From Actinomycetota bacterium (GTDB lineage Bacteria > Actinomycetota > Thermoleophilia > RBG-16-64-13): a stretch of DNA of 64,000 bases. Location: assembly GCA_018830645.1 (NCBI GenBank), contig JAHJSA010000023.1, positions 7,482-71,481 of the forward strand. The letters run 5' to 3'. The translations under genes were made by a program, and so were the position numbers. How positions within the stretch are numbered: the first letter of the stretch is position 1; the number at the start of each line of letters is the position of its first letter. Shown piece after piece: positions 20,056 to 55,590 of this stretch. Below the pieces are notes generated by a model. That model had not been told where the DNA came from. It did no database searches and worked only from the letters and a program-made list of their open reading frames with translations.

Positions 20056-20295
20056 ATCACTGAGTCCTGCAGTGCGAAGCGAGATCGGAGGCTTCTAGGA
20101 CATCGGGCCAACTCTACGTGGTCACGTGTAGCTGCCGTTTAGCCTCTTGTATGAAGTTTTCGGATGGGTTGTACGCCTTGTGTACAGGAATGCGAATGGC
20201 GCGCCCGGGAAACGACACCGAGCGCGCCATTCGACGCTCGCGCTGCGACGGCCGGCCCCGGCTGGCGAGCCCGGGGCGCGAACCGCTGCTCGGCC

Positions 20296-21627: not shown

Positions 21628-21831
21628 GAACTGACCTTCCTGGTGAGTTGTTGGTGCTGCCTACCGGGAAGGGTACCTGCCATTGGCCATAGGAACAACA
21701 CCAAGAGGGCCAACTTTCGACCCAAATCTATTAGCCATTTGGACAAGTGGCAGCGAACGGCTGTGATCGAGCGGTGCTGAGATCGACCGGGGCTCAAGCG
21801 AGCGGCGAGGCGGCACCCACGCCCGAGGTGA

Positions 21832-22707
21832 TCAGTAGGCGTAGAGCTTGCCGTAGGGACGGTGGGTGAACGGGGCTATCTTGCCGAAGGGCTGCGAAAG
21901 CACCTCGGTCTCGTCGAATCCGTGCACTCGACAGAAGTCGGTGACAAGCTCCTCGATGCGGGCCGTGTCCTCGGGAGACGGGTCGACCACACTCACCTCT
22001 TTGCCGAGTTGGTGCCCCTGCACCGACCCGCGAACGTAGATCACACCGCCGTGCATGCCCGTGCCCACGTACGACCCCAGGAGCGGCTCGCTCGAATCGC
22101 CCAACCCGAGCAGGATCATCTCCCCCCCGGCCATGTACTCGCCGAAGAAGTCGCGGGCGCGTCCGCCGATCACGATGACCGGGTGCTGCTCCCCGTAGGC
22201 CTTCATGTGGATGCCCACCCGGTAGCCCACATCGCCGCGCACGTAGACTCGACCGCCGCGCATGCCATACCCGACTACATCCCCCGCATCGCCGCGCACC
22301 ACTACCAGTCCACGGTTCATGGTGTTGGCGATGCCGTCTTGGGCGTTATCGTCCACGATGACCGTGGGACCGTCCATGAAGGCGGCCAGGTCGTTGCCGG
22401 GCACGCCGTTGACCAAGATGGTGAGGTGGTCGGCGCTGATGCCGGCGCCGATGTAGCGTTGGCCGTTGACGTTGTCGAGCGCCACAGTCGATACGCCCGC
22501 TCCCACCAGCTCCCGGATCTGCTCGTTCAAGGTCTTGTAGTAGACGCCCCGGGCGTCGATGTGAGCCGTATCGCCGTCACGTGTCACTAGCCCGCTCTCG
22601 AGGCCGGGCTGGCCGGCCGTGATACGGGCGGGCTCGATGCCCGTGGGCCCGCGCCGAGCGGGGCCGGTGGGGACTCTGCGCACTGATTCCGACGAAGGTG
22701 TCATCAC
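21832..22707 (-). CDS. Glutamate synthase GXGXG-domain subunit (archaeal-type GltB C-terminal domain homologue)
   Basis: Repeated G-x-G-x-G beta-helix motifs (YIGAGISADH, VVVRGDAGDVVGYGMRGG, VYVRGDVGYRVG); immediately downstream of the FMN subunit. Confidence 0.75.
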   Translation of the reverse strand: MMTPSSESVRRVPTGPARRGPTGIEPARITAGQPGLESGLVTRDGDTAHIDARGVYYKTLNEQIRELVGAGVSTVALDNVNGQRYIGAGISADHLTILVNGVPGNDLAAFMDGPTVIVDDNAQDGIANTMNRGLVVVRGDAGDVVGYGMRGGRVYVRGDVGYRVGIHMKAYGEQHPVIVIGGRARDFFGEYMAGGEMILLGLGDSSEPLLGSYVGTGMHGGVIYVRGSVQGHQLGKEVSVVDPSPEDTARIEELVTDFCRVHGFDETEVLSQPFGKIAPFTHRPYGKLYAY

Positions 22708-22717
22708 TCGGCTCTCC

Positions 22718-24244
22718 TTAGTGGCCGACGCCGGCCGGCTTCACGCCGATGATGTCCATGGTCGTCTGGTCGAGTCCGAGCGCGCGCAGACGTTCTCGGC
22801 TGCCACGCAGGCTCTCGATGGCGTTCACCCCGACAGCTCCAAGCACCTCGGCGATCTCGTGACTCCACGCGCGGATCAGGTTGGACACGCGTTCGGCGCC
22901 CCACTCCGGATCCAGGCGGCGAGTGAGCTCCGGGCGCTGTGTGGTGATGCCCCACGAGCAGCAGCCCGTGTGGCACTTCTGACACACGTGGCAGCCCATA
23001 GCGACCAACAACGCGGTGCCCACCCCGCAGGCGTCGGCGCCGAGTGCGATGGCCTTGACGATGTCGGCCGAACTGCGGATCCCGCCTGCGGCGACGATCG
23101 AGGCGCGGTTGCGGATGCCCTCGTCGCGCAGACGCTGGTCGACGACCGCGATCGCGATCTCGATGGGGATACCAACGTGATCGCGGATGATGGTCGGAGC
23201 CGCCCCGGTGCCGCCCTTGAATCCGTCGAGGTAGACGATATCGGCTCCCGCCCGCACGACGCCGGACGCGATGGCGGCCACGTTGTGCACGCAGGCGATC
23301 TTCACCGAAACCGGCTTGTAGCCGGTGGCTTCCTTGATGGCGTAGATGAGCTGCCGCAGGTCTTCGATGGAGTAGATGTCGTGGTGCGGGGCAGGCGAGA
23401 GGGCGTCGGTGCCCTGGGGGATCATGCGGGTGGTCGAGACCTGTTCGTCGATCTTCTCGCCGGGCAGGTGGCCCCCGATGCCGGGCTTGGCACCCTGGCC
23501 AATCTTGATCTCCACCGCCGCGCCGGCCTGCAGGTAGTCGGCGTGCACGCCGAAGCGGCCCGAGGCGCACTGCACGATGATGTTGTCCTGGTAGGGCTCG
23601 AGATCGGCGTGTAGTCCGCCTTCGCCCGTGTTCATGAACGTGCCCGACGCCTTGGCCGCCATGGCCAGGGCCCGGTGCACGTTCAGCGACACCGACCCGA
23701 AGCTCATGCCCCCGAACACGATCGGGGTCTCCAACATCAGTTGCGGGTCGAGTTCGGTGAGGAGCTTCGGAGGCCCCCCGTCGCCGTTTCCATACCCCAC
23801 CACGATGGAGTCCGGCTTGCGGCCCAGGAACGTGCGCAGCTCCATGGGCTCACGCAGCGGGTCGATCGAGGGGTTGGTCACCTGGCACGCGTCGAGCAGA
23901 AGGTGGTCGAATATGCGCAGGTACGGCTTGTCGGTGCCCATGCCCGTGAGCAGCACCCCGCCTGTCTCGGCTTGGCGCCACACGGCCTTCCGCAGAGCTG
24001 ACGACATGCTGTCGGACTCCTTGTAGGCGAGGGGGTTCTTCTCGATGGTGATCGCGTCGGCCGGGCAGAAGGTGACGCAGCGATGGCACGCAGCGCACTT
24101 GGAATGATCGGGCATGGGGCGATCGTCGGCGTCGAGGTGGTACACACCCCAGCCGCACTGGTGCACGCAGCGCCCGCACTTGATGCACGCCTCGCGGTCG
24201 ATGCGCACTCGGAACTCAGGTCTGACGAAGGTCATCTCAGCCAT
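22718..24244 (-). CDS. Glutamate synthase FMN-binding large-subunit homologue with N-terminal 2x[4Fe-4S] ferredoxin domain (archaeal-type)
   Basis: N-terminal CIKCGRCVHQC and CAACHRCVTFCP ferredoxin motifs; FMN/TIM-barrel domain with DGFKGGTGAAP and the C-terminal Cys cluster for the 3Fe-4S centre. Confidence 0.8.
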   Translation of the reverse strand: MAEMTFVRPEFRVRIDREACIKCGRCVHQCGWGVYHLDADDRPMPDHSKCAACHRCVTFCPADAITIEKNPLAYKESDSMSSALRKAVWRQAETGGVLLTGMGTDKPYLRIFDHLLLDACQVTNPSIDPLREPMELRTFLGRKPDSIVVGYGNGDGGPPKLLTELDPQLMLETPIVFGGMSFGSVSLNVHRALAMAAKASGTFMNTGEGGLHADLEPYQDNIIVQCASGRFGVHADYLQAGAAVEIKIGQGAKPGIGGHLPGEKIDEQVSTTRMIPQGTDALSPAPHHDIYSIEDLRQLIYAIKEATGYKPVSVKIACVHNVAAIASGVVRAGADIVYLDGFKGGTGAAPTIIRDHVGIPIEIAIAVVDQRLRDEGIRNRASIVAAGGIRSSADIVKAIALGADACGVGTALLVAMGCHVCQKCHTGCCSWGITTQRPELTRRLDPEWGAERVSNLIRAWSHEIAEVLGAVGVNAIESLRGSRERLRALGLDQTTMDIIGVKPAGVGH

Positions 24245-24253
24245 GGCAGACCT

Positions 24254-25495
24254 CTACGCGACCGCGTTGTACGCGGCTGAGGTGGCAAGGTTGACGCCGT
24301 CTTCCAGCCGCGCGATAACCGGCTCACCGGCACGCGGCATCCAGGTGAGCTCGGGTTTCGGGCAGATCTCGCGGATCGCTGACTCCTCGCTGGCCACGTA
24401 CACGGTCGTGCCCATGCGAGCCGCGGCCAAGGGCCGGAGCTTGATGCGGTCGCTGAGGGCCACCATTCCCTCGCCCATGCCCAGGACGACCGCGAACGGG
24501 CCGTTGAGCAGCGCGGGCCCGTAGACCGCCCGCAGAGCGGTGTACAGCTGACGGTCGTCCTTCTCCATCAGATCGATGTCCTTCCAGAAAGGACTGGCCA
24601 GCGCCTTGCAGGCGATCTCGACCGACAGCCCATGGCGTCGCAGCAAGAGGTCGAACAGATACGTGACCACCTCGGTGTCGGTGCGCATCGAGCACTTGTA
24701 CCCGAACATCTCCAGGTAGCGCTGGTTGATGCCATACGAGCTGATCTCGCCGTTGTGAACGATGCTGTAGTCGAGCAGGCAGAAGGGGTGTGCGCCGCCC
24801 CACCATCCCGGCGTGTTCGTGGGGAAGCGACCATGGCCGGTCCAGGTCCAACCCCTGTACTCGTCGAGGCGGTAGAACTCGCCTATCTCCTCGGGAAACC
24901 CCACGCCCTTGAAAGCGCCCATGTTGCGCCCCGAAGAGGCGACGAAGGCTCCCTTGATGTGGTTGTTCACGTCCATGACCGAGTGGACCACGTAATCTTC
25001 GGCGCTCAGCTGCGTCTCGGCCAAACGCTCGTCGCTGATCTCGAGGAAGTATCGCCAGAGGATGGGCTCGTCTTCGATGCCGCGCACCGACTTCGACGGG
25101 ATCGGCTCGTGATGTAGGATCACGAAATGCCGCGCCAGGTAGTACTCGGTGTCGTCCTTGGCTACGTCGTCGTTGAAGAGCATGTGGAAGCAGAAGGCGT
25201 AGGGGAAGTCGGGATAGATGCCGTAGCCAGCGAAGCCTCCTCCCAAGCCGTTGCCACGGTCGTGCATCGAAGACATGCTGCGCAGAGCGAGCTCGCCGCT
25301 CATGCGACCGCCCGATTCGTCACACACGCCCATCAGTCCGCACCCACCCAGGATGCGTTCCTCGGCCTCGGCCGTGTAGGCCGGTCGCGGAACGAGGTCA
25401 CTCGAACGCGAACCTGGCGCGGGCAGCCCCCCGTAGGGGCGCCTGGCGCTCCGCCTGTCGGCCTCGCCGAATCGGTTGAGACCGCGCGCGCTCAA
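24254..25495 (-). CDS. Class-II (Ntn) glutamine amidotransferase subunit of archaeal-type glutamate synthase; possible N-terminal propeptide
   Basis: GATase-2 fold with nucleophile context G-C-G-L-M-G-V; the Cys is not directly preceded by a start codon; TTG at 25495 overlaps the upstream gene stop (TTGA), implying a ~46-aa propeptide if used. Confidence 0.65.
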   Translation of the reverse strand: MSARGLNRFGEADRRSARRPYGGLPAPGSRSSDLVPRPAYTAEAEERILGGCGLMGVCDESGGRMSGELALRSMSSMHDRGNGLGGGFAGYGIYPDFPYAFCFHMLFNDDVAKDDTEYYLARHFVILHHEPIPSKSVRGIEDEPILWRYFLEISDERLAETQLSAEDYVVHSVMDVNNHIKGAFVASSGRNMGAFKGVGFPEEIGEFYRLDEYRGWTWTGHGRFPTNTPGWWGGAHPFCLLDYSIVHNGEISSYGINQRYLEMFGYKCSMRTDTEVVTYLFDLLLRRHGLSVEIACKALASPFWKDIDLMEKDDRQLYTALRAVYGPALLNGPFAVVLGMGEGMVALSDRIKLRPLAAARMGTTVYVASEESAIREICPKPELTWMPRAGEPVIARLEDGVNLATSAAYNAVA

Positions 25496-26844
25496 CGCTC
25501 CGCCTTCCGCGCGGACAGCATCTTCTTGAGTTCCTCTCCCCCGGTGCGCGGCAGTGGATCCAGCCCCAGTTTGGTCCGGGCGCTCTCCCTCGGCTCGCCC
25601 AGCGATCCTGTCGACAGGAACATGTCATACGCCGAGCGCACCGCAGCCGGCACGCTGCCACGTTCCGCTGACAGCTCCTTCAGCTTGCGGAACACTTCGG
25701 CCATACCCAGCCGGCTATGGCACCGCTCGTAGCACGTGTAGCACTCGAGGCACTTCCACAGGTCGGCACGGTCGATCACCCCGTCGATGTCGCCGGACAA
25801 GATCTCGCCGATGATGCCGGTCGGGCTGAAGCCCGATCCCGCCTTCGTGACCGGACAGTCTTCCTCGCAGGCATGGCAATCGGCGCACTTCTGCAGTTCG
25901 GTCACCGCGAAGTCGCGTGCGATCTCTCGATGCTGGGCGGCTCTCTCGTTCCACTTCTCGAGGAAAGGCTCGGTGCTCACTCGGTGCATCGAGAGCCCGA
26001 TCTCGTCGGGCTCGTGGCCGAGCGTAAGCGCGAACAGCTCCGAGTAGTAGAAGACAGGGAGACCGGCCCGGGCCTCGGCTCCCCGAAGGAGTGAGGCTTG
26101 ATTCAAGTCGAACTGCTGAAGACAGGAGGGGCACACCACCACGAGCGCATCCACTCCCACTCCAGTGAGGTCATCGAGCTTGTTCCGGCAGAGATCGAGG
26201 GCACTGTCGCGCTCGCCGACGCGGTCGAGAGCGCCGCCGCAGCAGTCCATCTTGGTCTCGTAGTCAACGACGGTCGCGCCCAGGGCCCGCACCAGGTCTT
26301 CGAGTTTGGTGGGATTGGTCGAGCTATCCCAACGCACAGCCGGGCTTGGCCGCAAGAGGTGGCAGCCGTAGTGCACGGCCACGCGCATGCCCCACAGGGG
26401 CTTCTGCACCATCTTCGCGATGGCGGCCGGGCCGAGCTCCTCGTAGAGCCACTCGGCCAGGTGACTCACCGCGGGCAGCGACACCTCACGTGGGTGGCCC
26501 TCACCTTCCGAGACGATGTCGGCGACTCGGTCGGCGAGCCGCCAATCGGCCCGAAGGGTCGCCGAGACCGACTTGAACGTTGAGTAGCAGCCGTTGCAGG
26601 GGGTGACGATGGAGACACCCGCTTCGTCGGCCAGGAAGAGGTTCCGCGCGGCCGTGGCGTAGTAGGCCTCTTCATCCATGGCCTTCATCAGCGTGCCTTC
26701 AGGGCAGCACGTGTAGCCTTCCACCGCGACGGGTAGGCCACCGGCGGCGGCGATTGCGATCCTCGTGGACTTCTCTATGAACGGGAAGCGGGCTGGGATG
26801 GTGCAACCCCAGAACACCGAGAACGTCTTGGGCATCACTGTCAC
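25492..26844 (-). CDS. Iron-sulfur protein with two N-terminal CCG (Cys-rich HdrB-type) domains and a C-terminal 2x[4Fe-4S] HdrC-like domain
   Basis: CCG motifs (YTCCPEG, TPCNGCYSTF, MDCCGGALD, VVCPSCLQQF) followed by CADCHACEEDCP and CLECYTCYERC ferredoxin motifs; translationally coupled to the amidotransferase gene. Confidence 0.7.
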   Translation of the reverse strand: MTVMPKTFSVFWGCTIPARFPFIEKSTRIAIAAAGGLPVAVEGYTCCPEGTLMKAMDEEAYYATAARNLFLADEAGVSIVTPCNGCYSTFKSVSATLRADWRLADRVADIVSEGEGHPREVSLPAVSHLAEWLYEELGPAAIAKMVQKPLWGMRVAVHYGCHLLRPSPAVRWDSSTNPTKLEDLVRALGATVVDYETKMDCCGGALDRVGERDSALDLCRNKLDDLTGVGVDALVVVCPSCLQQFDLNQASLLRGAEARAGLPVFYYSELFALTLGHEPDEIGLSMHRVSTEPFLEKWNERAAQHREIARDFAVTELQKCADCHACEEDCPVTKAGSGFSPTGIIGEILSGDIDGVIDRADLWKCLECYTCYERCHSRLGMAEVFRKLKELSAERGSVPAAVRSAYDMFLSTGSLGEPRESARTKLGLDPLPRTGGEELKKMLSARKAER

Positions 26845-31214: not shown

Positions 31215-32708
31215 CTATGCCGGCACGCCGGCCCCAGCGATCTCTTTGAGCGCCTCGGCCACCGCAGGCTCCAGCGGGATCGGCGCGTGCGTATCGGCCA
31301 CCTCCCAGGCACGGGCGCGGGCACGGGCCACAGGGTCATCGGTGCCCGGGTCCATCCGTGCCCGCGAAAGCAGCTGAGGCCGCCACATGAGGCGCGCGTG
31401 CCGCATCGAATGCTTGGTGGCGAGGAAGTGCCCTCGGGGACCCACCTGCGCAATCGTTTCGAGCGCCAAGGTATCGTCGTCGACTTGAATGGGGCGCGCC
31501 GTGAAGGTGAGGGCGTTCCACAACTCCACGCCCAGAAGTAGCTCCGCCGGATCGCACACCGTCGCATTCTCGAGGAGACCCGGCCCCACCATCGCGTCGG
31601 GCCTCGCGAGCAGTATCATCGTCCCGGTAAGAGCGTCTTCGAAGGCCGACTGCCAGCCCACCCGAGTCGAGCCGCAGGCCATGCCGCCCATGAGAGATGG
31701 CAGCTTGTAGAAGCGGGCCATAGCAGTGGCGGCATTGGTGACCATGGCTTCCTCCGGTGCTCCACCGGCCATGCGGCCGGTCAACGGGTCGAGGACGCTG
31801 GTCATGCAGCTGTAGAAAGCCCTGGCTCCGGGACAAACCAGCCCCAGCGTCGCCAGGGTGCCGATGATCTCCGCGTTCACGATCACCAGATTCCCGGCGG
31901 GACTCGCCGGAGCAGTTCCACAGGCGAGTGGCATCGACACGATGCCCACGGGCACGCCCGCCTCAGCGAACACGAACGCCGCCTCCAAGGCCTCACCCTC
32001 GTTGGCAAGTGGGCTGATGGAACACTGGAAGTTGGACATCACGGGGCGGCGGCGAAGCTCGTCGGCGCCGCCGGCCACGAGCCGCGCCATCTCCACGGCC
32101 GCGCGCGCCTGGTGGGGCTTGGTGACGGTCATGCACTGCACGTGCTTCCCCGTGTTGGCGAAGGTGGCCTCGAGCTCCCAGAGCGGCTGCCTCTCCACCG
32201 GCCGGTCCAGGGCGCTCACCATCTGCCACGCGAAGGCGATCTCTGGGAGGGCGTCGCAGATGCGGGTCAGAGCCGCCAGATCATCGTAGGTGGAATCCCG
32301 CCACTCCCCCGTGAACCGATCCACCATCAGCATGCCGCACCCGCTCGGGCCAAGGTAGGTGGTACAACCGTCCAGTGCCAAGTCGAAGCGCTCGTCGCGG
32401 GCAGCGAAGACGCAGTCTCGCGACAGGAACGAAAGCCCCTTCTCCACGAGCTCGGCGGACATGCGCACCCGGGTGCCTTCGACGCTCGCCCCGTGTTCAG
32501 CGAGCACCCCCAAGCCCCGCTCCCACGGGATGTCGAGCCCCACAGACCCAAGAACGTCCAAGGTGGCCTGGTGCACGCGGTGCACACCATCTTCGCCGAG
32601 CAGATCCAGCCGCGGCAGGTCGGTCGGCGGCAGGAACGCTCCTGGCTGGGAGCCGCCGGCTGCGCCTGCCGGCGCGGTCGACGGCGGCGGTCGGTAGTCG
32701 TTGCTCAC
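31215..32708 (-). CDS. MttB-superfamily methyltransferase without pyrrolysine (uninterrupted ORF; candidate quaternary-amine/methylated-amine:corrinoid methyltransferase)
   Basis: 497 aa, full-length homologue of the trimethylamine methyltransferase family, but no in-frame TAG at the position where the two neighbouring mttB genes carry it. Confidence 0.8.
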   Translation of the reverse strand: MSNDYRPPPSTAPAGAAGGSQPGAFLPPTDLPRLDLLGEDGVHRVHQATLDVLGSVGLDIPWERGLGVLAEHGASVEGTRVRMSAELVEKGLSFLSRDCVFAARDERFDLALDGCTTYLGPSGCGMLMVDRFTGEWRDSTYDDLAALTRICDALPEIAFAWQMVSALDRPVERQPLWELEATFANTGKHVQCMTVTKPHQARAAVEMARLVAGGADELRRRPVMSNFQCSISPLANEGEALEAAFVFAEAGVPVGIVSMPLACGTAPASPAGNLVIVNAEIIGTLATLGLVCPGARAFYSCMTSVLDPLTGRMAGGAPEEAMVTNAATAMARFYKLPSLMGGMACGSTRVGWQSAFEDALTGTMILLARPDAMVGPGLLENATVCDPAELLLGVELWNALTFTARPIQVDDDTLALETIAQVGPRGHFLATKHSMRHARLMWRPQLLSRARMDPGTDDPVARARARAWEVADTHAPIPLEPAVAEALKEIAGAGVPA

Positions 32709-32751
32709 GCCGTATGTCCTCCTTCGAGTGTGGGGCGATCAGGCCGTTGCA

Positions 32752-34158
32752 CTACAGCTCCGCATTGAGCTTCTTTCGGAGGGTTTCGACGGAGGCTATC
32801 TCCACCCCCAACAGCCTCCCGATGCGCGCCTTGGCCGCCAGGCCTCGGGCGGCGCCCGGCATCGCCGTCACCACGCCGATATCGAGCTCCTCACGCAGTT
32901 CTCGCATGACCACCTCGTCGGAGAGGTCGCTGACGCCGACTCCGAGCTTGCCGGCCACGAACGCTTTCGCCTCTGAGATCCGCATCTTGCGATGGAGTTG
33001 CATCCTGGCGACCAGATCTCCGGCCGCGCGGATGCCCCCCATCCCGGAGGCGAGCACGTGTGCCATGGGCATCCCTACGGGATCGCCCACGCCCACCTAT
33101 AACCCGTCCACGCGCCCGATCTCCACCATGGCCACGCTCGCTCGGGTCACGGCGTCCACCGGCGGGGTCTCGCACATGGGCACTCCCCCCACTCCCATGC
33201 CCACATTCGCGTGTATAGGGATGGAAGCGGCCTCGGAACAGGCCTTGACGAAGGTAACCGCCCGGGCGACGTTCCACGCACACGACCTGCGGGTGTTGGT
33301 GTTGACGACAGGGCCGAACACGGCGGCGCCCGCCTTCTCGACCAACTTCACCTGCTGGTGCGGATAGAGACCGGCCAGCCGCTCTCCCTTGTACGTGACC
33401 TCGCCGTGCATGCCGAGTACGAACTCGGCGGCCATACCCACCTGGATCGACAGGTGCGTGTTCGCGGAGAGCTCCTCGACCGCCAGAAGAGTGGCCAGGA
33501 ACTCGGCATCGCCCGCCGAGGCGGTGGTGTCGAAGTCCAGACCGTCTGCTCCGGCGTCTGCCATCTTCCTACCCACGTACACCATGTCGCGGGTGCAGGC
33601 CTCGGCCGCTGCCAGCTGCGCCGCTCGGGCCTCCTCGATCTTGCCCTCAGGGAGCAGATCAGAGGGGTTGCCGAACGGGCCGTCGGGCCGGGCGTAGGTG
33701 GCCAGGTTCGGCATCGCCCCGTAATACACGGGGATGATGGTGCCGAGTAGCACGCTCTCCATGCATTGCTGCTCGTTGGCGACGATGGGCTTCACGGGTT
33801 TGTACGAGTAGTCCGGGTGGCCGAGTTCGATGGTGTCGAAGCCGAAGGCGCGCTCGAAGAGACGGATGGCCTGTTCTCGCGACACCGGCACCCCGACGCC
33901 GCTGTCTCCCTGCTCGGCGTACAACGAACCCGCCACGCCGTCGTCGCTGAGCACGACCTCACGGCCGGGCTCCACTCCCACGATGCGCCCGGGATAGGCG
34001 AAGAGGTCGAATAGGTGGTCGCGCTCCTGCTCGGTGATGGTAGGGATACGCCCGCGGTCGGCCGCGTCTTCCGTGCCGGCCAGGATGTCGGCACGGACCT
34101 TGTCCGAGGACATCGCCTCAACGCGCCCATCGCCCATGCGCATGCGGTGGCTCGGCAT
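32752..34158 (-). CDS. mtbB: Dimethylamine:corrinoid methyltransferase MtbB, pyrrolysine-containing (in-frame UAG at 33097..33099)
   Basis: Two adjacent in-frame track ORFs (33097..34158 and 32752..33096) separated only by TAG; junction ...[33 protein letters not shown] matches the MtbB Pyl site; N-terminus MRMGDG..GDSGVG is also MtbB-like; ~468 aa in total. Confidence 0.9.
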
Positions 34159-35639
34159 CAGTTTCCTCCTTGGTTCCGGGCCGGACGGCCCAGGTGTTTC
34201 GCGATGACCGCCTCAGCTTCCGGGGGCAACGGCGCTACAGAGTGCTTGGCGAGGATCCTTCGGGCAACGGCGAGCGCCCGAGCGTGGGCGTCCTCACCCC
34301 CGCGCTTCTCCCAGGCGCCCCGCATGCGACGGTCGATCACCTGAGCCTCCGACTGCTCGCGACGAGCCAGTTCCCGGGTATGCCTCTCGCGCAGGAAGTT
34401 GCCATCGGACCCTACTCTCAGAATGGATTCGAGACCGATGGAGGCGACATCGCTGCGGATGCCTTCGAGCACCCGCCGGTTCATGCGTGCGATCTCGTCA
34501 TCCATCACCATCTGACCGAAGTCGAAGGTCAGGCCTAATTCGAGCATCCCCATGCCATAGATCAGGTTGGCCCCTGCCAACGCTGGTAACAGACTGGTGA
34601 GGGTCTTCTCGTGGCCCGCCTGCACGTCGGGTAGTTTGCTGTCTGCCTAACCGCCGGCCACCCAGCAGGGCAGGTAGTAGAACTCACTCATCTCGGCGAC
34701 GGCGGCGGAGATGAGGGCGAGTTCGGGAGCTCCGACGGGCGCAGTGGCGTGGCGCAGGTCGAAGGTGGTGGTGCTGCTGCCGTAGATGACCGGAGCCCCG
34801 GGGCGGGTGAGTTGAGCGAGCGTAAGCGCCGAGAGCACCTCCGCGTTGTGGGTGACCATGGTGCCGGACAGGCTGATCGGACCGGTCGCCCCGGCCATGG
34901 CCATGGAGATGACGTTCGAGGCGATCCCGTGGCGCGCGCACCCCATCATGATCTCCGGGGTGGGCGAGTAGAGGGCCAGGGGACTCGTGGGGCAGGTGTC
35001 GATGGAGAATATGGGGCGCTCGCGCAAGGCTTCAGCCCCGCCGACCACCGCTGCCCCGATCTCGGCGAGTTCATCGATCTGCTCTCCGGTCTCGACGCCC
35101 GCGTGCACGTGCTTCGTGGTATTGCGGAGCGCCGCGACGAAGCCCTCCAGGTAGGCGCTCTCGGAGGGCACGTCGGTGGGCGTCACCGCCATCTCGAAGG
35201 TATCGCACATCTCGAGGGCGTCGCAGAGCCGAGCTATGCGGGCGAGATCGTCCAGGGTGGAGTCCCGGTGCTCCCCCGTCTCGAGATCGTAGACTTTGGT
35301 GCCCTCACCGAAGTTGGTGTAGCCCACCGAACGGCCGCCCATGAGGTAGTCGCGCTCGCCATCCCGCGAGGCCAGGAGGATCGTGCCCGGAGCCGACTCC
35401 AGTGCCTCTTCAACCACGTTCCGGGGGAAGCGGACAATCCGCGTGTGGGTGTCCACGACGCACCCTGCCCCGTCGAGGACATCGAGCGCCTCGTCCACCG
35501 GCACCTTCACACCGGCCGTCTCGAGAACGACCAGGGTGGCCTCATGGATCGCTTCCCGACCCGCGGCGCCCAACACATCGAAGCTGAGCCGCGGTACGCC
35601 CGCTCGCTCCTCATCCCTCAGCTTCTCTCTCCACCCCAT
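34158..35639 (-). CDS. mttB: Trimethylamine:corrinoid methyltransferase MttB, pyrrolysine-containing (in-frame UAG at 34647..34649)
   Basis: Track ORFs 34647..35687 and 34158..34625 share a frame across a single TAG: ...[51 protein letters not shown]; ~493 aa from ATG 35639 (RBS AAGGAAGG), Pyl at ~331 as in MttB. Confidence 0.9.
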
Positions 35640-35644: not shown

Positions 35645-36169
35645 TCAGGCCTTCCTTTCCAGAGCGGGATCTTCGGGGACTTCCCACATATAGCTGAACT
35701 TCTCGTTCCCCAGGATGGTGAACACCTCGGTTGAGAGAATGCTCCCGCCCGGCGCGAGCGGGCCGCCGAGGAACTCAAGGAGCTCCTCGCTTCCTCGGAA
35801 CACGGCTTCCACCAGGAGGTTATAACGACCGGTGCAGTACCCCACCCAGCACACCCGGTTGAGTGCGGCGAAGGCGCGGGCGACCTCCCGCAGATCGCCT
35901 GCGACAACATTCACGCCGATCATGACGTTGATGGGATAGCCGGTGGCCGCAGGGTCCAGCAAACCCACGATCTGCATCACTCCGGTTTCGTGCAACCGTT
36001 CGATGCGTTTGCGCACCGTGGGCACGGACACGCCGGTGGCCCGCGCGATCTCCGCGTTCGGCAGGCGTCCGTCGCTCTGCAGGAGGGCGAGGATCTTGCG
36101 GTCCAGTGAATCAAGGTGCTCCGGACGCGGCTCGCTCCTCCGATGCTCGTCCACCAGACCCCCAGTCAA
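35645..36169 (-). CDS. Lrp/AsnC family transcriptional regulator
   Basis: N-terminal HTH (LDRKILALLQSDGRLPNAEIARATGVSVPTVRKRIERL) and C-terminal RAM ligand-binding domain; directly upstream of mttB. Confidence 0.8.
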   Translation of the reverse strand: MTGGLVDEHRRSEPRPEHLDSLDRKILALLQSDGRLPNAEIARATGVSVPTVRKRIERLHETGVMQIVGLLDPAATGYPINVMIGVNVVAGDLREVARAFAALNRVCWVGYCTGRYNLLVEAVFRGSEELLEFLGGPLAPGGSILSTEVFTILGNEKFSYMWEVPEDPALERKA

Positions 36170-44602: not shown

Positions 44603-46063
44603 CTACTCCTCCGCCGAGACGATGATCTTCTTCATCGCCTCGTGGACCGCGGGATCGAGCGGCATCGCCTCGTGGGTCTTCAGCAGATCGGCGGCCATAG
44701 CCTCGGCACGCGTCGCCACGTCGGTCCCACCTTTCTTCGTCCATGCTCCCCGCGTACGCCTGTCGAAGAGCTTCACCTTCGACTGCTCCGAGGGCATGTA
44801 CTTCAGCGTGTGCTTCTCCTTCAGGAAGTTCTTGCCCGAACCGATCTTGTGGATCACCTCGGTGCCGATGGTGTCGTTGTCCACGGGTGAACCGCGCACC
44901 ACGCGCTTGACCATCGAGGCGATCTCGTTGTCGATCAGGAGCTGTCCGTAGGAGAACGTGACACCCAGTTCGAGCATCCCCATACCGTATATCAGGTTGG
45001 ACCCTGCCAACGCTGGTAGCAGACTGGTGATGGTTTTCTCGTGCCCGGCCTGAGCGTCGATCACTTTGCTATCCGCCTAACCACCGGCAACGTAGCTCGG
45101 CAGATTGTAGTAGTTGGACAGTTCGGCCACCGCCGCGGAGATCATGCCCAGCTCTGGCGCCCCTACGGGGGCCGTGGCGTAGGTCATGTCGAACATGGTG
45201 GTGGAGCTTCCGTACATGGCGGGAGCGCCCTTGCTGGTGAGCTGCGCCAGCGTGAGGCCGGCCAGCACCTCTGCGTTGTGGGTGACCAGCGTGCCCGATA
45301 CCGACACCGGGCTCGATGCGCCCGACATGGCCATGCTGAGCACGTTGATGGGGCATCCCCAGCGCGCGCTCTCCATGATGACCTCGCAGGTCACCGTGTG
45401 GAGCATCAGGGGGCTGGTGGGGCACACCAGGGTGGAGACCAGCGGCCTCTCCCGGAGCTCCCTGTCGCCGCCCGCGATGAGCGCGGCCATCTCGAACATC
45501 TTGCGGGCGTTGGCACCCGAAGAGACGTCGATGTGATGCACGTGCTTACTCGTGTTCAGGAACGCGGCTTCGAGCATGTGCAGGTCGTATGAGGCGTCGG
45601 GCATGTCGCGAGCGACGACGGCCGTCGAGTACACGTCGACGTTCTCCATCGCGTCGCAGGCGAGCGCCGTCCTTCCCATGTCTTCCTTTGTGGTCTCGTT
45701 CACTTCGCCCGTCTCGGGATCGGTGACCATGATCCCGCAGCCGAAGTTGGTGTAGCCCACGTGCTTGCCGCCCATCCAGTAGTCGTACCTGGGATCGCGC
45801 GCCGCGAGCAGGATGCTGCTCGGGCACGACGCCAGGGCTTCCTCGACCACGTAGGCCGGGAACTTCACGATCTTGGTGGCACGATCGACGATGCAGCCGC
45901 CCTCTTCGAGAACGTCCACTGCTTCCTCGAGATGAACCTCGACCCCGGTCAGCCGGAGGACTTCCAGCGTGGCGTCGTGGATGGCGTCGAGCTGACTGCT
46001 CGAGTACATCCTGAGACCCCAGCCTTGGTATTCCTCCGTACTGGCTCTCGGTCCTCGGATCAT
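44603..46063 (-). CDS. mttB: Trimethylamine:corrinoid methyltransferase MttB (second copy), pyrrolysine-containing (in-frame UAG at 45077..45079)
   Basis: Track ORFs 45077..46165 and 44603..45064 are in frame across one TAG: ...[54 protein letters not shown]; paralogous to the 34158..35639 copy. Confidence 0.9.
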
Positions 46064-46106
46064 GTGCGCACCTCCTTTCTCTCGCTCGTAGTGACAGGCC
46101 GTCTCA

Positions 46107-46772
46107 CTAGGAGACGGCTTCCTTGGCCTTCGCCACCGTCTCGGTGGCGCTCTCGGCGTAGACATCCGCGCCGATCTTGTCGGCCCAGTGCTGGGTGGCG
46201 GCGGCGCCGCCCACCATCGTCTTCACATTCCCCCTGATGCCCGCCTCGGTGAGGGCCGCCTCCAACTTGGCCTGATTCACCATGGTGGTGGTCATGAGGG
46301 CCGAGCTACCCACCAGATCGGCGTTGGTCTCCTGCGCCATGCGGACGAATTCGCCGATGGCCACGTCGCGGCCAAGGTCATGCACCTCGAACCCGGACAC
46401 GCCGAGAAGCGTGCCCACGATCGTCTTTCCGATGTCGTGCACGTCACCTTCGATCGTGCCGATGACCACCGTGCCGAGCTTCTCGACCGCCGATGCTTCG
46501 GGCAGGGCCTCTTCCAGTATTGCAAGCGCGGCCGTCATGCAGTCCGCGGCGATGATCATCTCGGGAAGGCTCATCTCTTCCGCCTCGAACATCTCCCCGG
46601 CCCGGCGCATGCCCACCGTGAACCCTTCCTGCAGGAGCCGGACTGGATCTAGACCGCTCTCCAACGCATCCTTGGCCAGCTGTACCGCACCGTCCTCATC
46701 GATGTCGAGGACGAGCTCCTGCGCCTTCTGGATGGCTTCCTCCATGCTAAGTGTCGCCATGTACCGGTTCAC
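46107..46772 (-). CDS. mttC: Corrinoid (cobalamin-binding) protein, MttC-like
   Basis: B12-binding domain with DxHxxG (GDVHDIGK) and SxL / GG motifs; N-terminal corrinoid cap helix; immediately upstream of mttB. Confidence 0.85.
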   Translation of the reverse strand: MNRYMATLSMEEAIQKAQELVLDIDEDGAVQLAKDALESGLDPVRLLQEGFTVGMRRAGEMFEAEEMSLPEMIIAADCMTAALAILEEALPEASAVEKLGTVVIGTIEGDVHDIGKTIVGTLLGVSGFEVHDLGRDVAIGEFVRMAQETNADLVGSSALMTTTMVNQAKLEAALTEAGIRGNVKTMVGGAAATQHWADKIGADVYAESATETVAKAKEAVS

Positions 46773-46874
46773 CTCCTCTCATCCGTCTTCGTCACTGTCT
46801 TCCCTCGATCACTCCTCGCGCCGAACAACAGAGTTCGACCCCACGGAGCACGTCAACCGCCCGTTGCGCGCACG

Positions 46875-46991
46875 TCAGAGCTTCTTGACGAACGTACGAG
46901 CTTGATAGAGCGCCAGAGCCGGCAGAGTCACGAACAGGATGATCGCAACCGCCGGACCCGCTCCGAAAGCCCAGAACTCACTCACGTTCAC
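46875..46991 (-). CDS. Small hydrophobic peptide (38 aa, single predicted TM)
   Basis: GTG start 6 nt after a GGAGGTGG RBS that directly follows the upstream gene's TAA; translation (V/M)NVSEFWAFGAGPAVAIILFVTLPALALYQARTFVKKL; below the length cutoff of the ORF track. Confidence 0.4.
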   Translation of the reverse strand: MNVSEFWAFGAGPAVAIILFVTLPALALYQARTFVKKL

Positions 46992-47005
46992 GTAAGACCA
47001 CCTCC

Positions 47006-47284
47006 TTAGACCAGGAGCCCAGTATCGCTCATGCGCTGACGGCCGAACTCGGTAAGGCTGTACTTGAGCAGTATCTTCTCCTTCCCGAAGCTCTTGCTCG
47101 GATCAATGGTCTCCTCGATGGCATCGATGAGCCCCCCCGAGTAGAGGTCCGCAAGGGTGACCCGGTTGTTGCCGTACCAGTACTCGCCCTCGAGACCGCC
47201 GTACTCGGCGTTCAGTAACTCAGCGAGTTCGTAGTCCCACTTGGCTCCCTCGGTCTGCAGGATCTGCAGCAGGCGCCCTTTCAT
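47006..47284 (-). CDS. Hypothetical small soluble protein (~92 aa)
   Basis: ORF from the internal ATG (MKGRLLQILQTEGAKWDYELAELL...); no recognisable motif; lies between the membrane protein gene and the small peptide. Confidence 0.4.
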   Translation of the reverse strand: MKGRLLQILQTEGAKWDYELAELLNAEYGGLEGEYWYGNNRVTLADLYSGGLIDAIEETIDPSKSFGKEKILLKYSLTEFGRQRMSDTGLLV

Positions 47285-52307: not shown

Positions 52308-52379
52308 TGGAGGAGAGTCCGGGAGTCCAACCCGGCTACGAAGATTTAGAGTCTCCGCGGTCATGCCGACCAACCCTCC
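52308..52379 (-). tRNA. pylT: tRNA-Pyl (CUA anticodon) gene pylT
   Basis: Minus-strand 72-nt sequence GGAGGGTTGGTCGGCATGACCGCGGAGACTCTAAATCTTCGTAGCCGGGTTGGACTCCCGGACTCTCCTCCA folds with a 7-bp acceptor stem, single U8, a 4-bp D stem with 5-nt D loop, a 6-bp anticodon stem, loop CU-CUA-AA, a 3-nt variable loop and a 5-bp T stem. These are the hallmark atypical features of tRNA-Pyl. Confidence 0.85.
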
Positions 52380-52457: not shown

Positions 52458-53486
52458 TTAGACCGCCGCCTCTTCCGCGGCCTCCACCATGGCCCTCAGG
52501 TTCTCGGTCTCCGCCGAAGGCGGCACCGAGCAGCCGGGAGCGATCATGTCGTAGCCATCGGCCAGAGCCTTACGCACGTCGTTCTTCACGTCCTCGGGCG
52601 TGCCGGAGAAGAGCGTCACCACCGCGTCCACACCGCCGATCAGGGCGATGTGCCGGGGGAACCCGCGCAGCACCTCTTTGGCGGCGACGGCATCCACCGA
52701 CGGCTCCACGCTGATCGCGGTCACACCGGTCTCGGCGACCTCCGCCATGATCGGGTTGAGCTTCCCGCAGATGTGCATGATCGTGAGAACGCCGGGGAGG
52801 TTGGCGATCTGCTTCGCCTCATACGGCTGAGCGAGGTTGCGGAAGATGGGCGGGCTGATCACGTCGATCGAGGCCATCATGTCTTCGATGACGATGATGT
52901 CCGCACCCGCGTCCACAAGGGCTTTGCCCAGCATGGTGCCGGCCTGCTCGGCCACTTCCATGAGGGGCACCAGGCTCTCCGGCTTCTTGAAACTCGCCTT
53001 GAGTGCGTCGGTGATGCCGATCAGATTGGCCACGATCGAGAAGGGGCCGACGATGTTGCCCATCACCGCGACATCGTCGCCAACGGCTTCCTTCATCAGC
53101 CGCACGGCCTCGATCAATTCAGGCACGCGTCCGCGGGTGAGGAAGTCGTCGGGAAGAGCGATCTCGTCCCCGGCGTGGAAGGCGTGCACGTCGATACGCG
53201 GGATACCCTCGCGCCCGGCGTACTTGACGGTGCAGCCCAGAGCCTCGCTCTCGACGGTCTGGCAGTACGGGGCACGCACAGCGTCGAAGCCGAGTACGGA
53301 GTGGGCCGCCAGAGCCAGTTTGGCCATCGACTCGGCCTTCTGGTGGGCCTCCGGCCATTCCGCTCCACACGCGTCCATCTGCGCATAGGTCGCCGTCTGG
53401 TTGGCCGAGAAGACCGGTGGACGGTCCACGGGCAAACCGGCAAGCGCTGCTAGTACACGTTCCTTCGAAGTCATCACACCTCTCAC
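52458..53486 (-). CDS. Uroporphyrinogen decarboxylase (URO-D) family methylcorrinoid methyltransferase (MtbA/MtaA/MtqA-like)
   Basis: 342 aa URO-D fold typical of the methylcobamide:CoM / methylcorrinoid:tetrahydrofolate methyltransferases that partner with corrinoid proteins; lies between pylT and mtbB. Confidence 0.8.
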   Translation of the reverse strand: MRGVMTSKERVLAALAGLPVDRPPVFSANQTATYAQMDACGAEWPEAHQKAESMAKLALAAHSVLGFDAVRAPYCQTVESEALGCTVKYAGREGIPRIDVHAFHAGDEIALPDDFLTRGRVPELIEAVRLMKEAVGDDVAVMGNIVGPFSIVANLIGITDALKASFKKPESLVPLMEVAEQAGTMLGKALVDAGADIIVIEDMMASIDVISPPIFRNLAQPYEAKQIANLPGVLTIMHICGKLNPIMAEVAETGVTAISVEPSVDAVAAKEVLRGFPRHIALIGGVDAVVTLFSGTPEDVKNDVRKALADGYDMIAPGCSVPPSAETENLRAMVEAAEEAAV

Positions 53487-54887
53487 CTATCCCATCTTCG
53501 CTTTCAGTCTGTCCACACTGTTGATACTGATACCGAGCAATTCTGCGATACGGATCTTAGCCTCTATCCCCTTGGCGCATCCGGGCACTGAGGTGATCAC
53601 ACCTATGTCGAGGTCTTCGCGCATCTCCCGCATCACCGTGACCTCGGAGAGGTCGGCGACGCTGATCTTCAGCTTGTCGGCCACGTAGGCTTTGGCTTCC
53701 GGTAGGCGCATCCTGCGCGCGAGCTGCATCCGAGCGACCAGGTCTCCGGCCGTACGGATGCCGCCCATACCAGCGGCCACCCCGTGGGCGATGGGCATCC
53801 CGTAGGGATCGCCCACACCCACCTATAATCCGTCGACGCGGGCGATCTCGACCATCGCGACCGAGGCCCGCGAGACACTGTCGATAGGCGGGGTCTCGAA
53901 CACCGGGGAGCCACCCACCCCCATGCCCATGTTCACGTGCACCGGGATGTTGGCCACCGCGGTGACCGCCTTGACGAAGGTGACGGCGCGGGCAAGGTTC
54001 CAGGCCATCGACTTGCTGGTGTTGGTGTTCACGACAGGTCCGAAGATGTCGCCTCCGGCCTTCTCGACGAGACCAACTTGGTGGTGCGGGTAGAGCCCGG
54101 CGAGACGCGTGCCGTCGTACTCGAGCTCGCCGTGGATACCGAGTACGAACTCCCCGGCCATGCCAACCTGGATCGCAAGATTCGGGTGTTTGGCCTTCAG
54201 CTGCTCGACTGCCTGAAGCGAGGCTTTGAAGTCCGCGTCGCCCGCCGCGCCCGTCGTATCGAAGTTCACGCCGTCGGCGCCCACCTCGGCCAGCTTGCCG
54301 CAGATGTAGACGATGTCGCGGGTCGCGTGCTCGACCGCCAGTTCCTGGGCCTCACGCGCCTCCTTGATCTTGCCCATCGGCAGGAGGTCGGAGGGGTTGC
54401 CGAACGGGCCGTCGGGCGCGTAGTAGGTGCCGAGGTTCGGCATGGCTCCGTAGAAGATGGGCACGATGGTGCTGAGCAGGATGTTCTCGAGCGCCTGCTG
54501 CTCCTGGGCGATGATCGGCTTGACCGGCTTCCAGGAGTAGTCCACATGCCCGAGTTCCATGGTATCGGCCGCGAAGGCCCGCTCGTGCACCTGCACGCCC
54601 TGCAACCGGCTCAGCGGGATACCGACCCCGCTGTTGCCTTGGTCGCCGTCGAGGCGCAACGTGCCGATGTCGTGCGTGAGTACGACCTCGTTCCCCGAGT
54701 CGACGCCCACTACGCGCGCATTGCTCTTGAAGAGGTCGAGCAGGAAGTCGATCTCGTCGTCTTTGAGGGGTGGGATGCGGCCGCGATCGGCTGCGTCTGC
54801 GGAGCCGGCGATCAGATCGGCCTTCAGCTCGTCAGCCGTCATATCGATCACGTGCCCGTCCCCCATCCGGGTCGGGTACTTCGTCAT
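53487..54887 (-). CDS. mtbB: Dimethylamine:corrinoid methyltransferase MtbB (second copy), pyrrolysine-containing (in-frame UAG at 53823..53825)
   Basis: Track ORFs 53823..54887 and 53487..53822 abut in frame across TAG: ...[33 protein letters not shown]; N-terminus [24 protein letters not shown] is MtbB-like. Confidence 0.9.
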
Positions 54888-54942: not shown

Positions 54943-55590
54943 CTACCCCTGCACCAACTCGAGGGCCTTCTGCACGGCCTCCTGGGCGTTCTCGGCGTAG
55001 GCGTCGGCGCCGATCTTGTCGGCCCAATACTGAGTGACGACCGCCCCGCCCACCATGGTCTTCACCTGGTCGCGGATGCCCGCCTCCTTCAGCATCTTCT
55101 CCAAGGCCTTCTGCCCGACCATCGTCGTGGTCATGAGGGCCGAGGTACCCACGATCGCGGCCCCCGTCTCCTTGACCTTCTCGACGAACGTGTCCAGGGG
55201 GACGTCGCGGCCGAGGTCCACCACATCGAAGCCGTACACCCGCATCAGGGTCGCCACGATGCCTTTGCCGATGTCGTGCACGTCGCCCTCGATCGTGCCG
55301 ATGACGGCCGTGCCGGCCTTCTTCTCTCTCTGATCCTCGGGAAGCGACGCCTCTAGAATAGCGACGGCCGCAACCATGGCCTCAGAAGCAAGGATCACCT
55401 CCGGCAGGAACATGGTGCCCCGTTCGAAGAGGTCGCCCACGTCGCGCATGCCCGGAGTGAATCCCTCGTTGATCACCTTGAGGGGGTCGAGGCCCAGCTT
55501 CACCGCCTCAGTCGCAATCGCCTTCGCCTCGTCCTCATCGGCCGACACCACAGCCTTGGCTGCGGCTTCGAGCAATTCTTGTTCTGTCAT
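54943..55590 (-). CDS. mtbC: Corrinoid (cobalamin-binding) protein, MtbC-like
   Basis: B12-binding domain with GDVHDIGK (DxHxxG) and the corrinoid cap; upstream of mtbB. Confidence 0.85.
   Translation of the reverse strand: MTEQELLEAAAKAVVSADEDEAKAIATEAVKLGLDPLKVINEGFTPGMRDVGDLFERGTMFLPEVILASEAMVAAVAILEASLPEDQREKKAGTAVIGTIEGDVHDIGKGIVATLMRVYGFDVVDLGRDVPLDTFVEKVKETGAAIVGTSALMTTTMVGQKALEKMLKEAGIRDQVKTMVGGAVVTQYWADKIGADAYAENAQEAVQKALELVQG

Follow-up and report, generated by a model that had tools for sequence, protein, structure and literature searches.

A pyrrolysine-independent MttB-superfamily gene beside pyrrolysine-encoding mttB and mtbB in an actinobacterium, and its proposed role in methylated-amine metabolism

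Among the described members of the MttB superfamily that lack pyrrolysine (Pyl), MtgB of Desulfitobacterium hafniense (PDB 2QNE, 9YCE) is a TIM-barrel protein in which the residues Y97, R312, H348 and F356 bind glycine betaine (PMC13080624). MtpB, MtcB, MtyB and MthB of Eubacterium limosum are characterised non-Pyl members that methylate a separate corrinoid protein, with proline betaine, carnitine, gamma-butyrobetaine and phosphocholine as substrates. The Arg equivalent to R312 binds the acidic group and is conserved in all five of these enzymes (PMC13080624). In the Pyl-containing MttBs, Tyr364 is among the residues reported to be invariant (PMC9842639). Borton et al. (2023, PMC10653893) catalogued as 'MtxB', from human-gut genomes, those homologues that lack an amber codon, align across the Pyl position and have a substrate that cannot be assigned from sequence. 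A non-Pyl homologue is already known from within a Pyl-mttB locus, as Kivenson et al. (2021, PMC8318568) reported a 'putative glycine betaine methyltransferase' at such a locus in marine Deltaproteobacteria.

We analysed a gene that fits the MtxB definition exactly, and that is located in a 64,000-nucleotide stretch of DNA (the window) from an environmental Actinomycetota MAG rather than a gut genome. A sequence-only reading of the window had pointed to the coexistence of this gene, which we call mtxB, with Pyl-mttB and Pyl-mtbB; given the deltaproteobacterial locus, the novelty of this arrangement is lower than that reading implied.

The mtxB gene and the operon around it

The mtxB gene occupies positions 31215..32708 of the minus strand, the strand on which the other window features given with coordinates below also lie. 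It encodes 497 amino acids from a GTG start, preceded at 9 nt by the Shine-Dalgarno sequence GGAGG, to a TAG stop at 31215-31217, and the open reading frame listing of the window showed no internal stop or TAG codon. The product matched the Pfam family MTTB (PF06253) over residues 30-489 of 497 (E=1.2e-67; 228.5 bits, cutoff 25), bearing out the earlier description of a 497-residue MttB homologue without an amber codon. The GC content of its codon positions (0.70/0.52/0.83) is typical of real genes in this window of 65% GC. Furthermore, the protein is identical to MBU2601197.1 in NCBI (from an Actinomycetota MAG, 224-kb contig), and two independent assemblies (SRR6514730, ERR2191546) contain it unchanged, which makes three assemblies in total and ruled out a chance open reading frame of GC-rich DNA. 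MtxB retains 68 of the 77 positions at which 59 relatives show conservation of 85% or more, which is within the range of bona fide family members, and departs from its clade at some conserved sites, for instance with Ser122 for the Asp of the 'DGCG' motif and with Trp177 for a His. These observations confirmed that mtxB is an intact, genuine gene.

The genes upstream of mtxB contain in-frame amber codons, as the sequence-only reading had described. A spacer of 43 nt (32709..32751), which contains the GGAGG motif 9 nt before the GTG and no terminator-like site, separates mtxB from mtbB copy 2, encoding a dimethylamine (DMA) methyltransferase (32752..34158; Pyl TAG at 33097-33099, terminal TAG at 32752-32754; Pfam Dimeth_Pyl, E=8e-207). 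The ATG of mtbB copy 2 overlaps the TGA of mttB copy 2, encoding a trimethylamine (TMA) methyltransferase (34158..~35639; Pyl TAG at 34647-34649), which probably starts at the ATG at 35639, with the GTG at 35687 also possible. Directly upstream of mttB copy 2 is a gene for an Lrp/AsnC-family regulator (35645..36169). Scanning the operon for promoters and terminators yielded nothing above shuffled expectation, a result that was in itself neutral on the operon call. From the shared strand, the 43-nt gap and the absence of any promoter- or terminator-like site above chance we infer the single operon in which the sequence-only reading had placed these genes; transcription of mtxB together with Pyl-mttB and Pyl-mtbB, controlled by the Lrp-type regulator, is probable. 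No gene for a corrinoid protein, a reductive activator or a second methyltransferase (MT2) was found inside the operon. We also considered, and rejected, read-through of the mtxB TAG into a functional C-terminal extension: the next stop is 106 codons further on, antisense to a VWA gene, relatives that also end in TAG have no conserved extension, and TAG is a common stop here.

Clade placement, structure model and catalytic-site residues

To place MtxB we used neighbour-joining, not maximum-likelihood, trees with 100 bootstrap replicates. MtxB fell inside a clade of 93 non-Pyl sequences (bootstrap 98), while 16 Pyl-MttBs formed a monophyletic group (bootstrap 82, or 96 with three non-Pyl sisters) that excluded it. 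MtxB is thus not a Pyl-MttB whose amber codon mutated to sense, in agreement with the sequence-only reading, which had proposed phylogenetic placement relative to MtgB, MtpB, MtcB and MtyB; the tree covered MtgB, whose sequence was reconstructed from PDB alignments and which branched far outside the clade of MtxB, and the comparison with MtpB, MtcB, MtyB and MthB was made by published description. The clade is without any characterised member. The subclade of MtxB itself had a bootstrap of 70, with no other member linked to Pyl genes, and MtxB formed a long branch: no full-length relative in a set of 1.84 billion representatives exceeded 44% identity to it. Of representatives at the 50% identity level, 4787 gave a match to the protein. 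Clade hosts found in this search were only uncultured Chloroflexota, Actinomycetota, Bacillota and Desulfobacterota. A single-protein genome scan with MtxB gave no relative among the species representatives searched, so that the MAG of mtxB itself is absent from that set, and the pattern search of genomes was built on a 9-sequence alignment, the 60-sequence alignment being too diverse for pattern design.

Pairwise comparisons gave the same separation from the Pyl-MttBs. MtxB is 31% identical to either Pyl-MttB of the window, versus 53% between those two, which in turn are 44-48% identical to MttB of M. barkeri; across these Pyl-MttBs (the M. barkeri protein, PDB 7XCL, and both window copies) its identity was 27-31%, and it was 27% identical to MtgB. 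The sole NCBIfam model that matched MtxB was the Pyl-MttB equivalog TIGR02369, at 349.6 bits and hence below the cutoff of 525, versus 629 bits for the neighbouring Pyl-MttB.

The fold is that of the superfamily. An AF2 model of MtxB (pLDDT 92.7, pTM 0.91) showed a TIM barrel and a C-terminal extension as in the solved members, and Foldseek aligned it to 9yce, 7xcl, 2qne and 4yyc with TM scores of 0.88-0.92 (0.90 for MttB) and an rmsd of about 2 A. The best sequence match in the PDB was MtgB (6e-51), with MttB at 8.5e-43.

As the sequence-only reading had proposed, we inspected the residue in the Pyl-equivalent column. MtxB has Ala344 there (codon GCC), as do 60 of 92 clade relatives with Ala, in contrast to the Leu of MtgB and to the in-frame TAG at the Pyl334 position of the MttBs. 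MtxB keeps only 4 of the 29 residues that are invariant in the Pyl clade and differ from the consensus of its own clade. The catalytic Tyr364 of MttB is replaced by Val374 and Gly372 by Ala382, while the equivalents of Gly110 and Met249 are kept.

The four glycine-betaine contacts of MtgB were likewise all replaced in MtxB. The R312 column contains Leu339, and none of the 93 clade members has Arg there, unlike MtgB and, by description, MtpB, MtcB, MtyB and MthB (PMC13080624). The Y97 column contains Cys124 (in the phmmer alignment) or Gly123 (MAFFT), the H348 column Val374 or a gap, and the F356 column Ala382. Two Trp residues, Trp161 (100% conserved in the clade) and Trp352 (98%), are absent from both the Pyl clade and MtgB, and the AF2 model predicts them at the ends of strands or in loops of the catalytic face. 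The absence of the anchoring Arg together with the two clade-specific Trp residues suggests that the substrate is more likely to be a methylated amine that offers no carboxylate or phosphate as an anchor than to be a betaine, so that the glycine betaine, proline betaine or carnitine implied by the sequence-only reading is an unlikely substrate class. Even in the absence of this Arg, another residue may hold an acidic substrate; Arg349 of MtxB is near the Pyl loop.

Genome context of the clade and the methylamine island of the window

The linkage of mtxB to Pyl-mttB and Pyl-mtbB that had been pointed out in this window recurs elsewhere, as a Pyl-mttB and/or mtbB gene was present within 6 kb in 16 of the 66 genome loci of the clade. 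A cognate corrinoid protein gene was within 6 kb in 41 of these loci, and 49 contained further MTTB paralogues. In two loci of deltaproteobacterial MAGs (L048 and L070) the genes are arranged as in the mtxB operon, in the order mttB(Pyl)-mtbB(Pyl)-homologue; in L048 these genes are flanked by a gene of the Lrp family, to which the regulator upstream of the mtxB operon also belongs. The deltaproteobacterial homologues (those of PMC8318568, L048 and L070) resemble mtxB in standing beside Pyl-mttB, and all belong to the 93-member clade. They differ from it in falling into another subclade (bootstrap 99), with Gly at the Pyl column, and in being 36-37% identical to MtxB, so that the mttB-mtbB-homologue arrangement looks recurrent rather than simply inherited. 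At other loci a clade relative stood beside a corrinoid protein, a pterin-binding methyltransferase and a RACo activator (L003) or beside a RACo activator (L010), and the contexts of L005/L006, L007 and L008 were heterogeneous and individually uninformative.

In the window, tRNA-Pyl (anticodon CUA; 52308..52379), pylSn (51897-52262), pylSc (~51013-51960), pylB (~49904-51000), pylC (48717-49910), mtmB and the second mttB and mtbB copies are located 12-28 kb from mtxB. These are mttB copy 1 (44603..46063; Pyl TAG at 45077-45079), with a gene for an MttC-like corrinoid protein at 46107..46772 (TIGR02370, 236 bits); mtbB copy 1 (53487..54887; Pyl TAG at 53823-53825), with an MtbC-like corrinoid protein gene at 54943..55590; and mtmB (57454-58878; Pyl TAG at 58234-58236), with mtmC at 58892-59542. 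Between tRNA-Pyl and mtbB copy 1 is a gene for an MtaA/MtbA-type (URO-D family) methylcorrinoid methyltransferase (52458..53486), the only candidate MT2 found in the window. We did not find pylD among the open reading frames flanking pylC, nor a RACo/RamA domain among the scanned open reading frames of the window. This island amounts to an almost complete Pyl/methylamine system of an actinobacterium, and our search for literature on Pyl in Thermoleophilia or Actinomycetota returned nothing relevant. In this host, genes that end in TAG are about as frequent as those that end in TGA.

As the mtxB operon itself encodes no corrinoid protein, the MttC-like protein encoded at 46107-46772, the nearest to mtxB at a distance of 13 kb, is a candidate methyl acceptor for MtxB.

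Proposed function of MtxB and the alternatives to it

We propose, with a probability of roughly 0.6, that mtxB encodes a functional, Pyl-independent and corrinoid-dependent MT1 of the MttB superfamily ('MtxB') for a methylated amine, likelier a non-acidic one than a betaine, and that its activity feeds into the TMA/DMA pathway. By analogy with relatives of solved structure, MtxB would form a TIM-barrel homodimer whose catalytic face binds a methyl-ammonium compound and presents one of its N-methyl groups to the Co(I) of a separate corrinoid protein; the same corrinoid-methylating chemistry is presumed for MtgB and MtxB, and an MT1 role is characterised for the E. limosum enzymes. The neighbouring clusters would have to supply the corrinoid partner (of the MttC, MtbC or MtmC type), and the MtaA/MtbA-type protein is the candidate for the second methyltransferase that would discharge the resulting methyl-Co(III). 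Given co-transcription with Pyl-mttB, its neighbour and probably part of the same transcript, and with Pyl-mtbB, methyl groups obtained by MtxB would join those of TMA and DMA in one pathway. A broader range of methylated amines, as the sequence-only reading suggested from the coexistence of these genes, is a reasonable hypothesis.

An alternative that we consider unlikely is that MtxB is a betaine-type methyltransferase for acidic quaternary amines, like MtgB, MtpB, MtcB, MtyB or MthB, and would widen the range of the organism to glycine betaine, proline betaine, carnitine or phosphocholine. Such substrates are used by all five of the five characterised non-Pyl members (PMC12155760, PMC13080624), MtgB was the best PDB sequence match of MtxB, and some clade relatives adjoin SBP_bac_3-type ABC transporters. 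However, the low identity to MtgB, its distant branching, and the absence of the R312-type Arg and of the other three contacts argue against this, and an enzyme of the MtgB type was rejected on the basis of those four replacements. Moreover, MtcB and MtyB differ in specificity although they are 53% identical (PMC8604678), so that no substrate can be transferred to MtxB at 27-44% identity.

A more specific and rather speculative version of the proposed MT1 role is that MtxB and its clade demethylate a non-acidic methyl-ammonium compound whose product feeds the co-encoded Pyl enzymes, for example tetramethylammonium to TMA. The mttB(Pyl)-mtbB(Pyl)-mtxB operon would then account for three steps, from (CH3)4N+ to TMA, DMA and MMA, and Trp161 and Trp352 would hold the cation, in place of a pyrrolysine adduct or of an Arg that anchors a carboxylate. 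The missing Arg, the two Trp residues, the small residue at the Pyl column and the recurrent embedding in Pyl operons are compatible with this idea, and nothing in them is specific to tetramethylammonium. If it were true, MtxB would act on a quaternary amine devoid of an acidic group, a first for the MttB superfamily, and this bacterial route would differ from that of methanogens, for which a non-Pyl MtmB homologue has been reported (PMC13044021).

It is very unlikely that MtxB is a helper of the Pyl enzymes rather than an MT1. In that role it would be either the bacterial methyl-corrinoid:acceptor methyltransferase that is so far missing, working in reverse, or a protein without Pyl that forms oligomers with MttB and the corrinoid protein or serves them as a scaffold. 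The operon does have two MT1 genes with no corrinoid protein and no MT2, and neither was found within 6 kb of the two deltaproteobacterial operons of the same order (L048 and L070). In addition, the second methyltransferase of bacterial TMA systems has been called uncharacterised (PMC8318568), and the C-terminal loop of the MttB dimer partner helps to hold MttC (PMC9842639). However, no superfamily member is known to act in either way, the window already encodes an MtaA/MtbA-type MT2, and for the majority of the clade the genome or locus has no Pyl genes and the homologue adjoins a corrinoid protein of its own, as is usual for MT1s. Finally, although mtxB is adjacent to Pyl-mttB and its TIGR02369 score (350 bits) is above its general Pfam score, we reject the view that it is a decayed, Pyl-less copy of that neighbour with amber changed to sense, and hence a pseudo-enzyme or weak TMA methyltransferase, because this is contradicted by the sub-cutoff score, the identities, the tree, the few Pyl-clade invariants kept (with Val374 for Tyr364 and Ala at the Pyl column), and an intact reading frame with family-typical conservation.

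Most of the several thousand lineages of the MttB superfamily have no substrate assigned, and the six substrates that have been assigned are all TMA or acidic quaternary amines. MtxB is another case in which the annotation 'trimethylamine methyltransferase' would mislead metabolic prediction. It marks a well-supported clade that is widespread in uncultured members of the four phyla named above, that has no acidic-group anchor, that carries an aromatic signature of its own and that is found repeatedly in Pyl methylamine operons. Through this clade, a possibly new class of substrates for anaerobic methylotrophy becomes open to concrete tests, as does the way in which Pyl-using bacteria arrange their methylamine catabolism.

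The uninterrupted gene and its probable operon

The sequence-only reading had described an uninterrupted MttB-superfamily gene at window 31215-32708 (-), a description that held. The open reading frame is real: it runs for 497 codons from a GTG start to a TAG stop with zero internal stops, has GGAGG 9 nt before the start, and matches Pfam MTTB over residues 30-489 (E=1.2e-67). Its codon-position GC (0.70/0.52/0.83) resembles that of the real genes of the window, whose overall GC is 65%, and the same protein sequence stands in NCBI under MBU2601197.1 (Actinomycetota bacterium MAG, 224-kb contig) and recurs in two independent assemblies. Nor is the gene degenerating, as it keeps 68 of the 77 positions conserved at >=85% in 59 relatives (the low end of the other members' range, yet inside it), and its AF2 model (pLDDT 92.7) superposes on MtgB, MttB and the S. 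meliloti homologue with a TM of about 0.9.

The three genes directly upstream, all on the (-) strand, are mtbB (32752-34158; Dimeth_Pyl E=8e-207; in-frame TAG at 33097-33099), mttB (34158-~35639; TIGR02369 629 bits vs a cutoff of 525; in-frame TAG at 34647-34649) and an Lrp/AsnC regulator (35645-36169). The TGA of mttB overlaps the ATG of mtbB, the gap between mtbB and the uninterrupted gene is 43 nt, and a scan of the operon for promoter- and terminator-like sites found none above chance. From this gap, the common strand and the scan we infer, soundly in our view, that the gene shares an operon with the pyrrolysine (Pyl) genes mtbB and mttB; of the earlier claim of one operon, adjacency, strand and spacing were observed, and co-transcription is probable. 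The operon contains second copies of mttB and mtbB and encodes no corrinoid protein, activator or second methyltransferase. The genes downstream, VWA and MoxR, are convergent.

The methylamine and pyrrolysine island

A nearly complete methylamine/pyrrolysine island of this Actinomycetota MAG lies at window 44603-59542 (-), comprising mtmC, mtmB(Pyl), an amino-acid permease, mtbC, mtbB(Pyl), an MtaA/MtbA-type methyltransferase, tRNA-Pyl (CUA), pylSn, pylSc, pylB, pylC, an EamA transporter, mttC and mttB(Pyl). At 47316-52379 the order is tRNA-Pyl, pylSn, pylSc, pylB, pylC and then the EamA transporter; pylD was found neither beside pylC nor among the window ORFs scanned, so that the Pyl biosynthesis set is incomplete within the window. 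We saw no gene in the window for a pterin-binding methyl-THF transferase. The URO-D-family protein at 52458-53486 scored ~320 bits on methylcobamide:CoM methyltransferase (MtaA/MtbA) models, under their equivalog cutoffs. A literature search for pyrrolysine with Thermoleophilia or Actinomycetota found nothing on Pyl in Actinomycetota.

Of the 48 genes called in the window, 21 end in TAG and 22 in TGA, and nearby back-up stops were not enriched. This TAG frequency is unexpected where TAG also encodes Pyl, and suggests that TAG is read as Pyl conditionally or within tight limits. Directly behind the stop of mtbB copy 1, a TAG at 53487-53489, the MtaA/MtbA-type gene follows in the same frame (window 52458-54887), and read-through would yield an MtbB-MtbA fusion. 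A GATase-domain gene (24254-25495) also ends in TAG, in frame with the downstream glutamate-synthase-domain gene (window 22718-25495).

The remaining window genes are housekeeping (LeuRS, UvrB, PolA, S1, GlnA, glutamate synthase, CarB). Just past the operon of the uninterrupted gene, window 18448-26844 holds glutamine synthetase, several glutamate-synthase-domain genes and an HdrD-like CCG/4Fe-4S protein, a set of genes that would fit the assimilation of ammonia freed from methylamines.

A separate clade and its neighbourhoods

When 1.84 billion cluster representatives were searched exhaustively with HMMER, 4787 matched as superfamily members; the closest full-length relatives were <=44% identical to the protein, and two frameshifted fragments 47-52%. 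After an earlier, smaller tree, we constructed a neighbour-joining tree of 168 sequences (MAFFT alignment, 100 bootstraps) that took in this protein, the window Pyl-MttBs, database representatives and all MTTB genes of the retrieved loci; its references were M. barkeri MttB and D. hafniense MtgB, whose sequences we rebuilt from PDB alignments, and MtpB, MtcB, MtyB and MthB lie outside it. All 16 sequences whose Pyl column (that of MttB Pyl334) carries an in-frame TAG were monophyletic (bootstrap 82, or 96 once three non-Pyl sisters are included). Our protein fell outside them, among 93 uninterrupted sequences that form a clade of their own (bootstrap 98).

A neighbourhood survey that took a single genome from each species yielded 66 loci with members of this clade; their sources are all uncultured and belong to Chloroflexota, Actinomycetota (Thermoleophilia in many cases), Bacillota or Desulfobacterota. 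A methyltransferase-cognate corrinoid protein lay <=6 kb away in 41/66 and further MTTB paralogues occurred in 49/66; at locus L003 the relative adjoins a corrinoid protein, a pterin-binding methyltransferase and a RACo activator, and at L010 a RACo activator. Such neighbourhoods are the usual layout of substrate:corrinoid methyltransferases.

Pyl-mttB and/or mtbB occurred within 6 kb in 16 of the 66 loci (a count covering this clade alone), with TAG at the Pyl site confirmed in 13. The window's order, mttB(Pyl)-mtbB(Pyl)-non-Pyl homologue, recurred in Desulfobacterales L048 (2762-7263), with an Lrp-family gene upstream near the operon, and in Deltaproteobacteria L070 (2738-7401), whose homologues are 36-37% identical to ours and belong to a different subclade. 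Pyl-mtbB stood immediately upstream of the homologue in three Actinomycetota loci (L058, L072, L073), and L057 and L063 had the order mtbB(Pyl)-mttB(Pyl)-mtbC-homologue. These operon-embedded homologues form another subclade with Gly at the Pyl column (bootstrap 99), and a third, Thermoleophilia subclade (bootstrap 100) lies near divergent Pyl-mttB, with a corrinoid protein gene in several loci. As the gene is the only Pyl-linked member of its own subclade (bootstrap 70), the association holds for the clade as a whole and seems to recur instead of having been passed down in one piece.

Eight soil Thermoleophilia MAG loci (L004, L009, L025, L035, L039, L050, L051, L066) carried TAG-confirmed Pyl-mttB on the strand opposite the clade member, inside arrays of <=6 MTTB paralogues. 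A corrinoid protein gene followed Pyl-mttB in L025, L035, L039, L050 and L051, and SBP_bac_3-type ABC transporters stood in the arrays of L004 and L009.

Substrate site and probable function

The best-supported reading is a functional Pyl-independent substrate:corrinoid methyltransferase, an 'MtxB' in the sense of PMC10653893, which would methylate an island corrinoid protein from a methylated amine and would be co-regulated with TMA and DMA demethylation.

The sequence-only reading had implied betaine-type substrates, an implication that the substrate site does not bear out. MtgB binds glycine betaine through Y97 and F356 (cation-pi) and R312 and H348 (carboxylate) (PMC13080624, 2026). R312 is conserved in MtcB, MtpB, MthB and MtyB (PMC13080624), all of which use acidic quaternary amines (PMC13080624; PMC12155760). 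All four residues are replaced here, R312 by Leu339, F356 by Ala382, H348 by Val374 or a gap, and Y97 by Cys124 (window about 32337-32339) or Gly123, the alignment being ambiguous by one residue; Arg occupies the R312 column in 0/93 clade members. The protein is apparently unlike CHARACTERISED non-Pyl enzymes, an MtgB-like site was rejected, and a betaine-type acidic substrate is probably not used; a betaine-type enzyme in spite of the missing Arg is unlikely. Since MtcB and MtyB differ in specificity at 53% identity (PMC8604678), no substrate can be transferred to this protein at 27-44%.

The clade has signature tryptophans, Trp161 (100% conserved; window about 32226-32228) and Trp352 (98%; about 31653-31655), which neither the Pyl clade nor MtgB has. 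In the AF2 model both lie on the catalytic face, one at the end of a strand and the other where the helix behind the Pyl-equivalent loop begins. The Pyl column usually holds a small residue (Ala or Gly), and a Cys beside the Gly110 equivalent is frequent ('DGCG'; here SGCG).

It is doubtful that the protein feeds the Pyl enzymes by demethylating a non-acidic quaternary amine such as tetramethylammonium; if it did, the operon would be a three-step demethylation cascade. Still more improbable is a role beside the Pyl enzymes as their helper or as a partner acting in reverse. A decayed Pyl-MttB copy is hardly credible and, as far as sequence comparison goes, firmly excluded by the tree, by 31% identity to each window Pyl-MttB (53% mutually; 44-48% to M. 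barkeri MttB), by retention of only 4 of the 29 Pyl-clade invariants that differ in this clade, by Val374 at the position of Tyr364, catalytic in MttB (PMC9842639), and by a sense codon for Ala344 (about 31677-31679) at the Pyl column.

Non-Pyl MttB homologues are abundant and already known. Pyl and non-Pyl members are known together in one organism (PMC10653893), and a Pyl-mttB locus of marine Deltaproteobacteria has been described with a non-Pyl homologue inside it (PMC8318568). Our analysis excludes the decayed-copy and MtgB-like readings, and adds a large uncharacterised clade with its own putative active-site signature and with repeated links to Pyl-methylamine operons.
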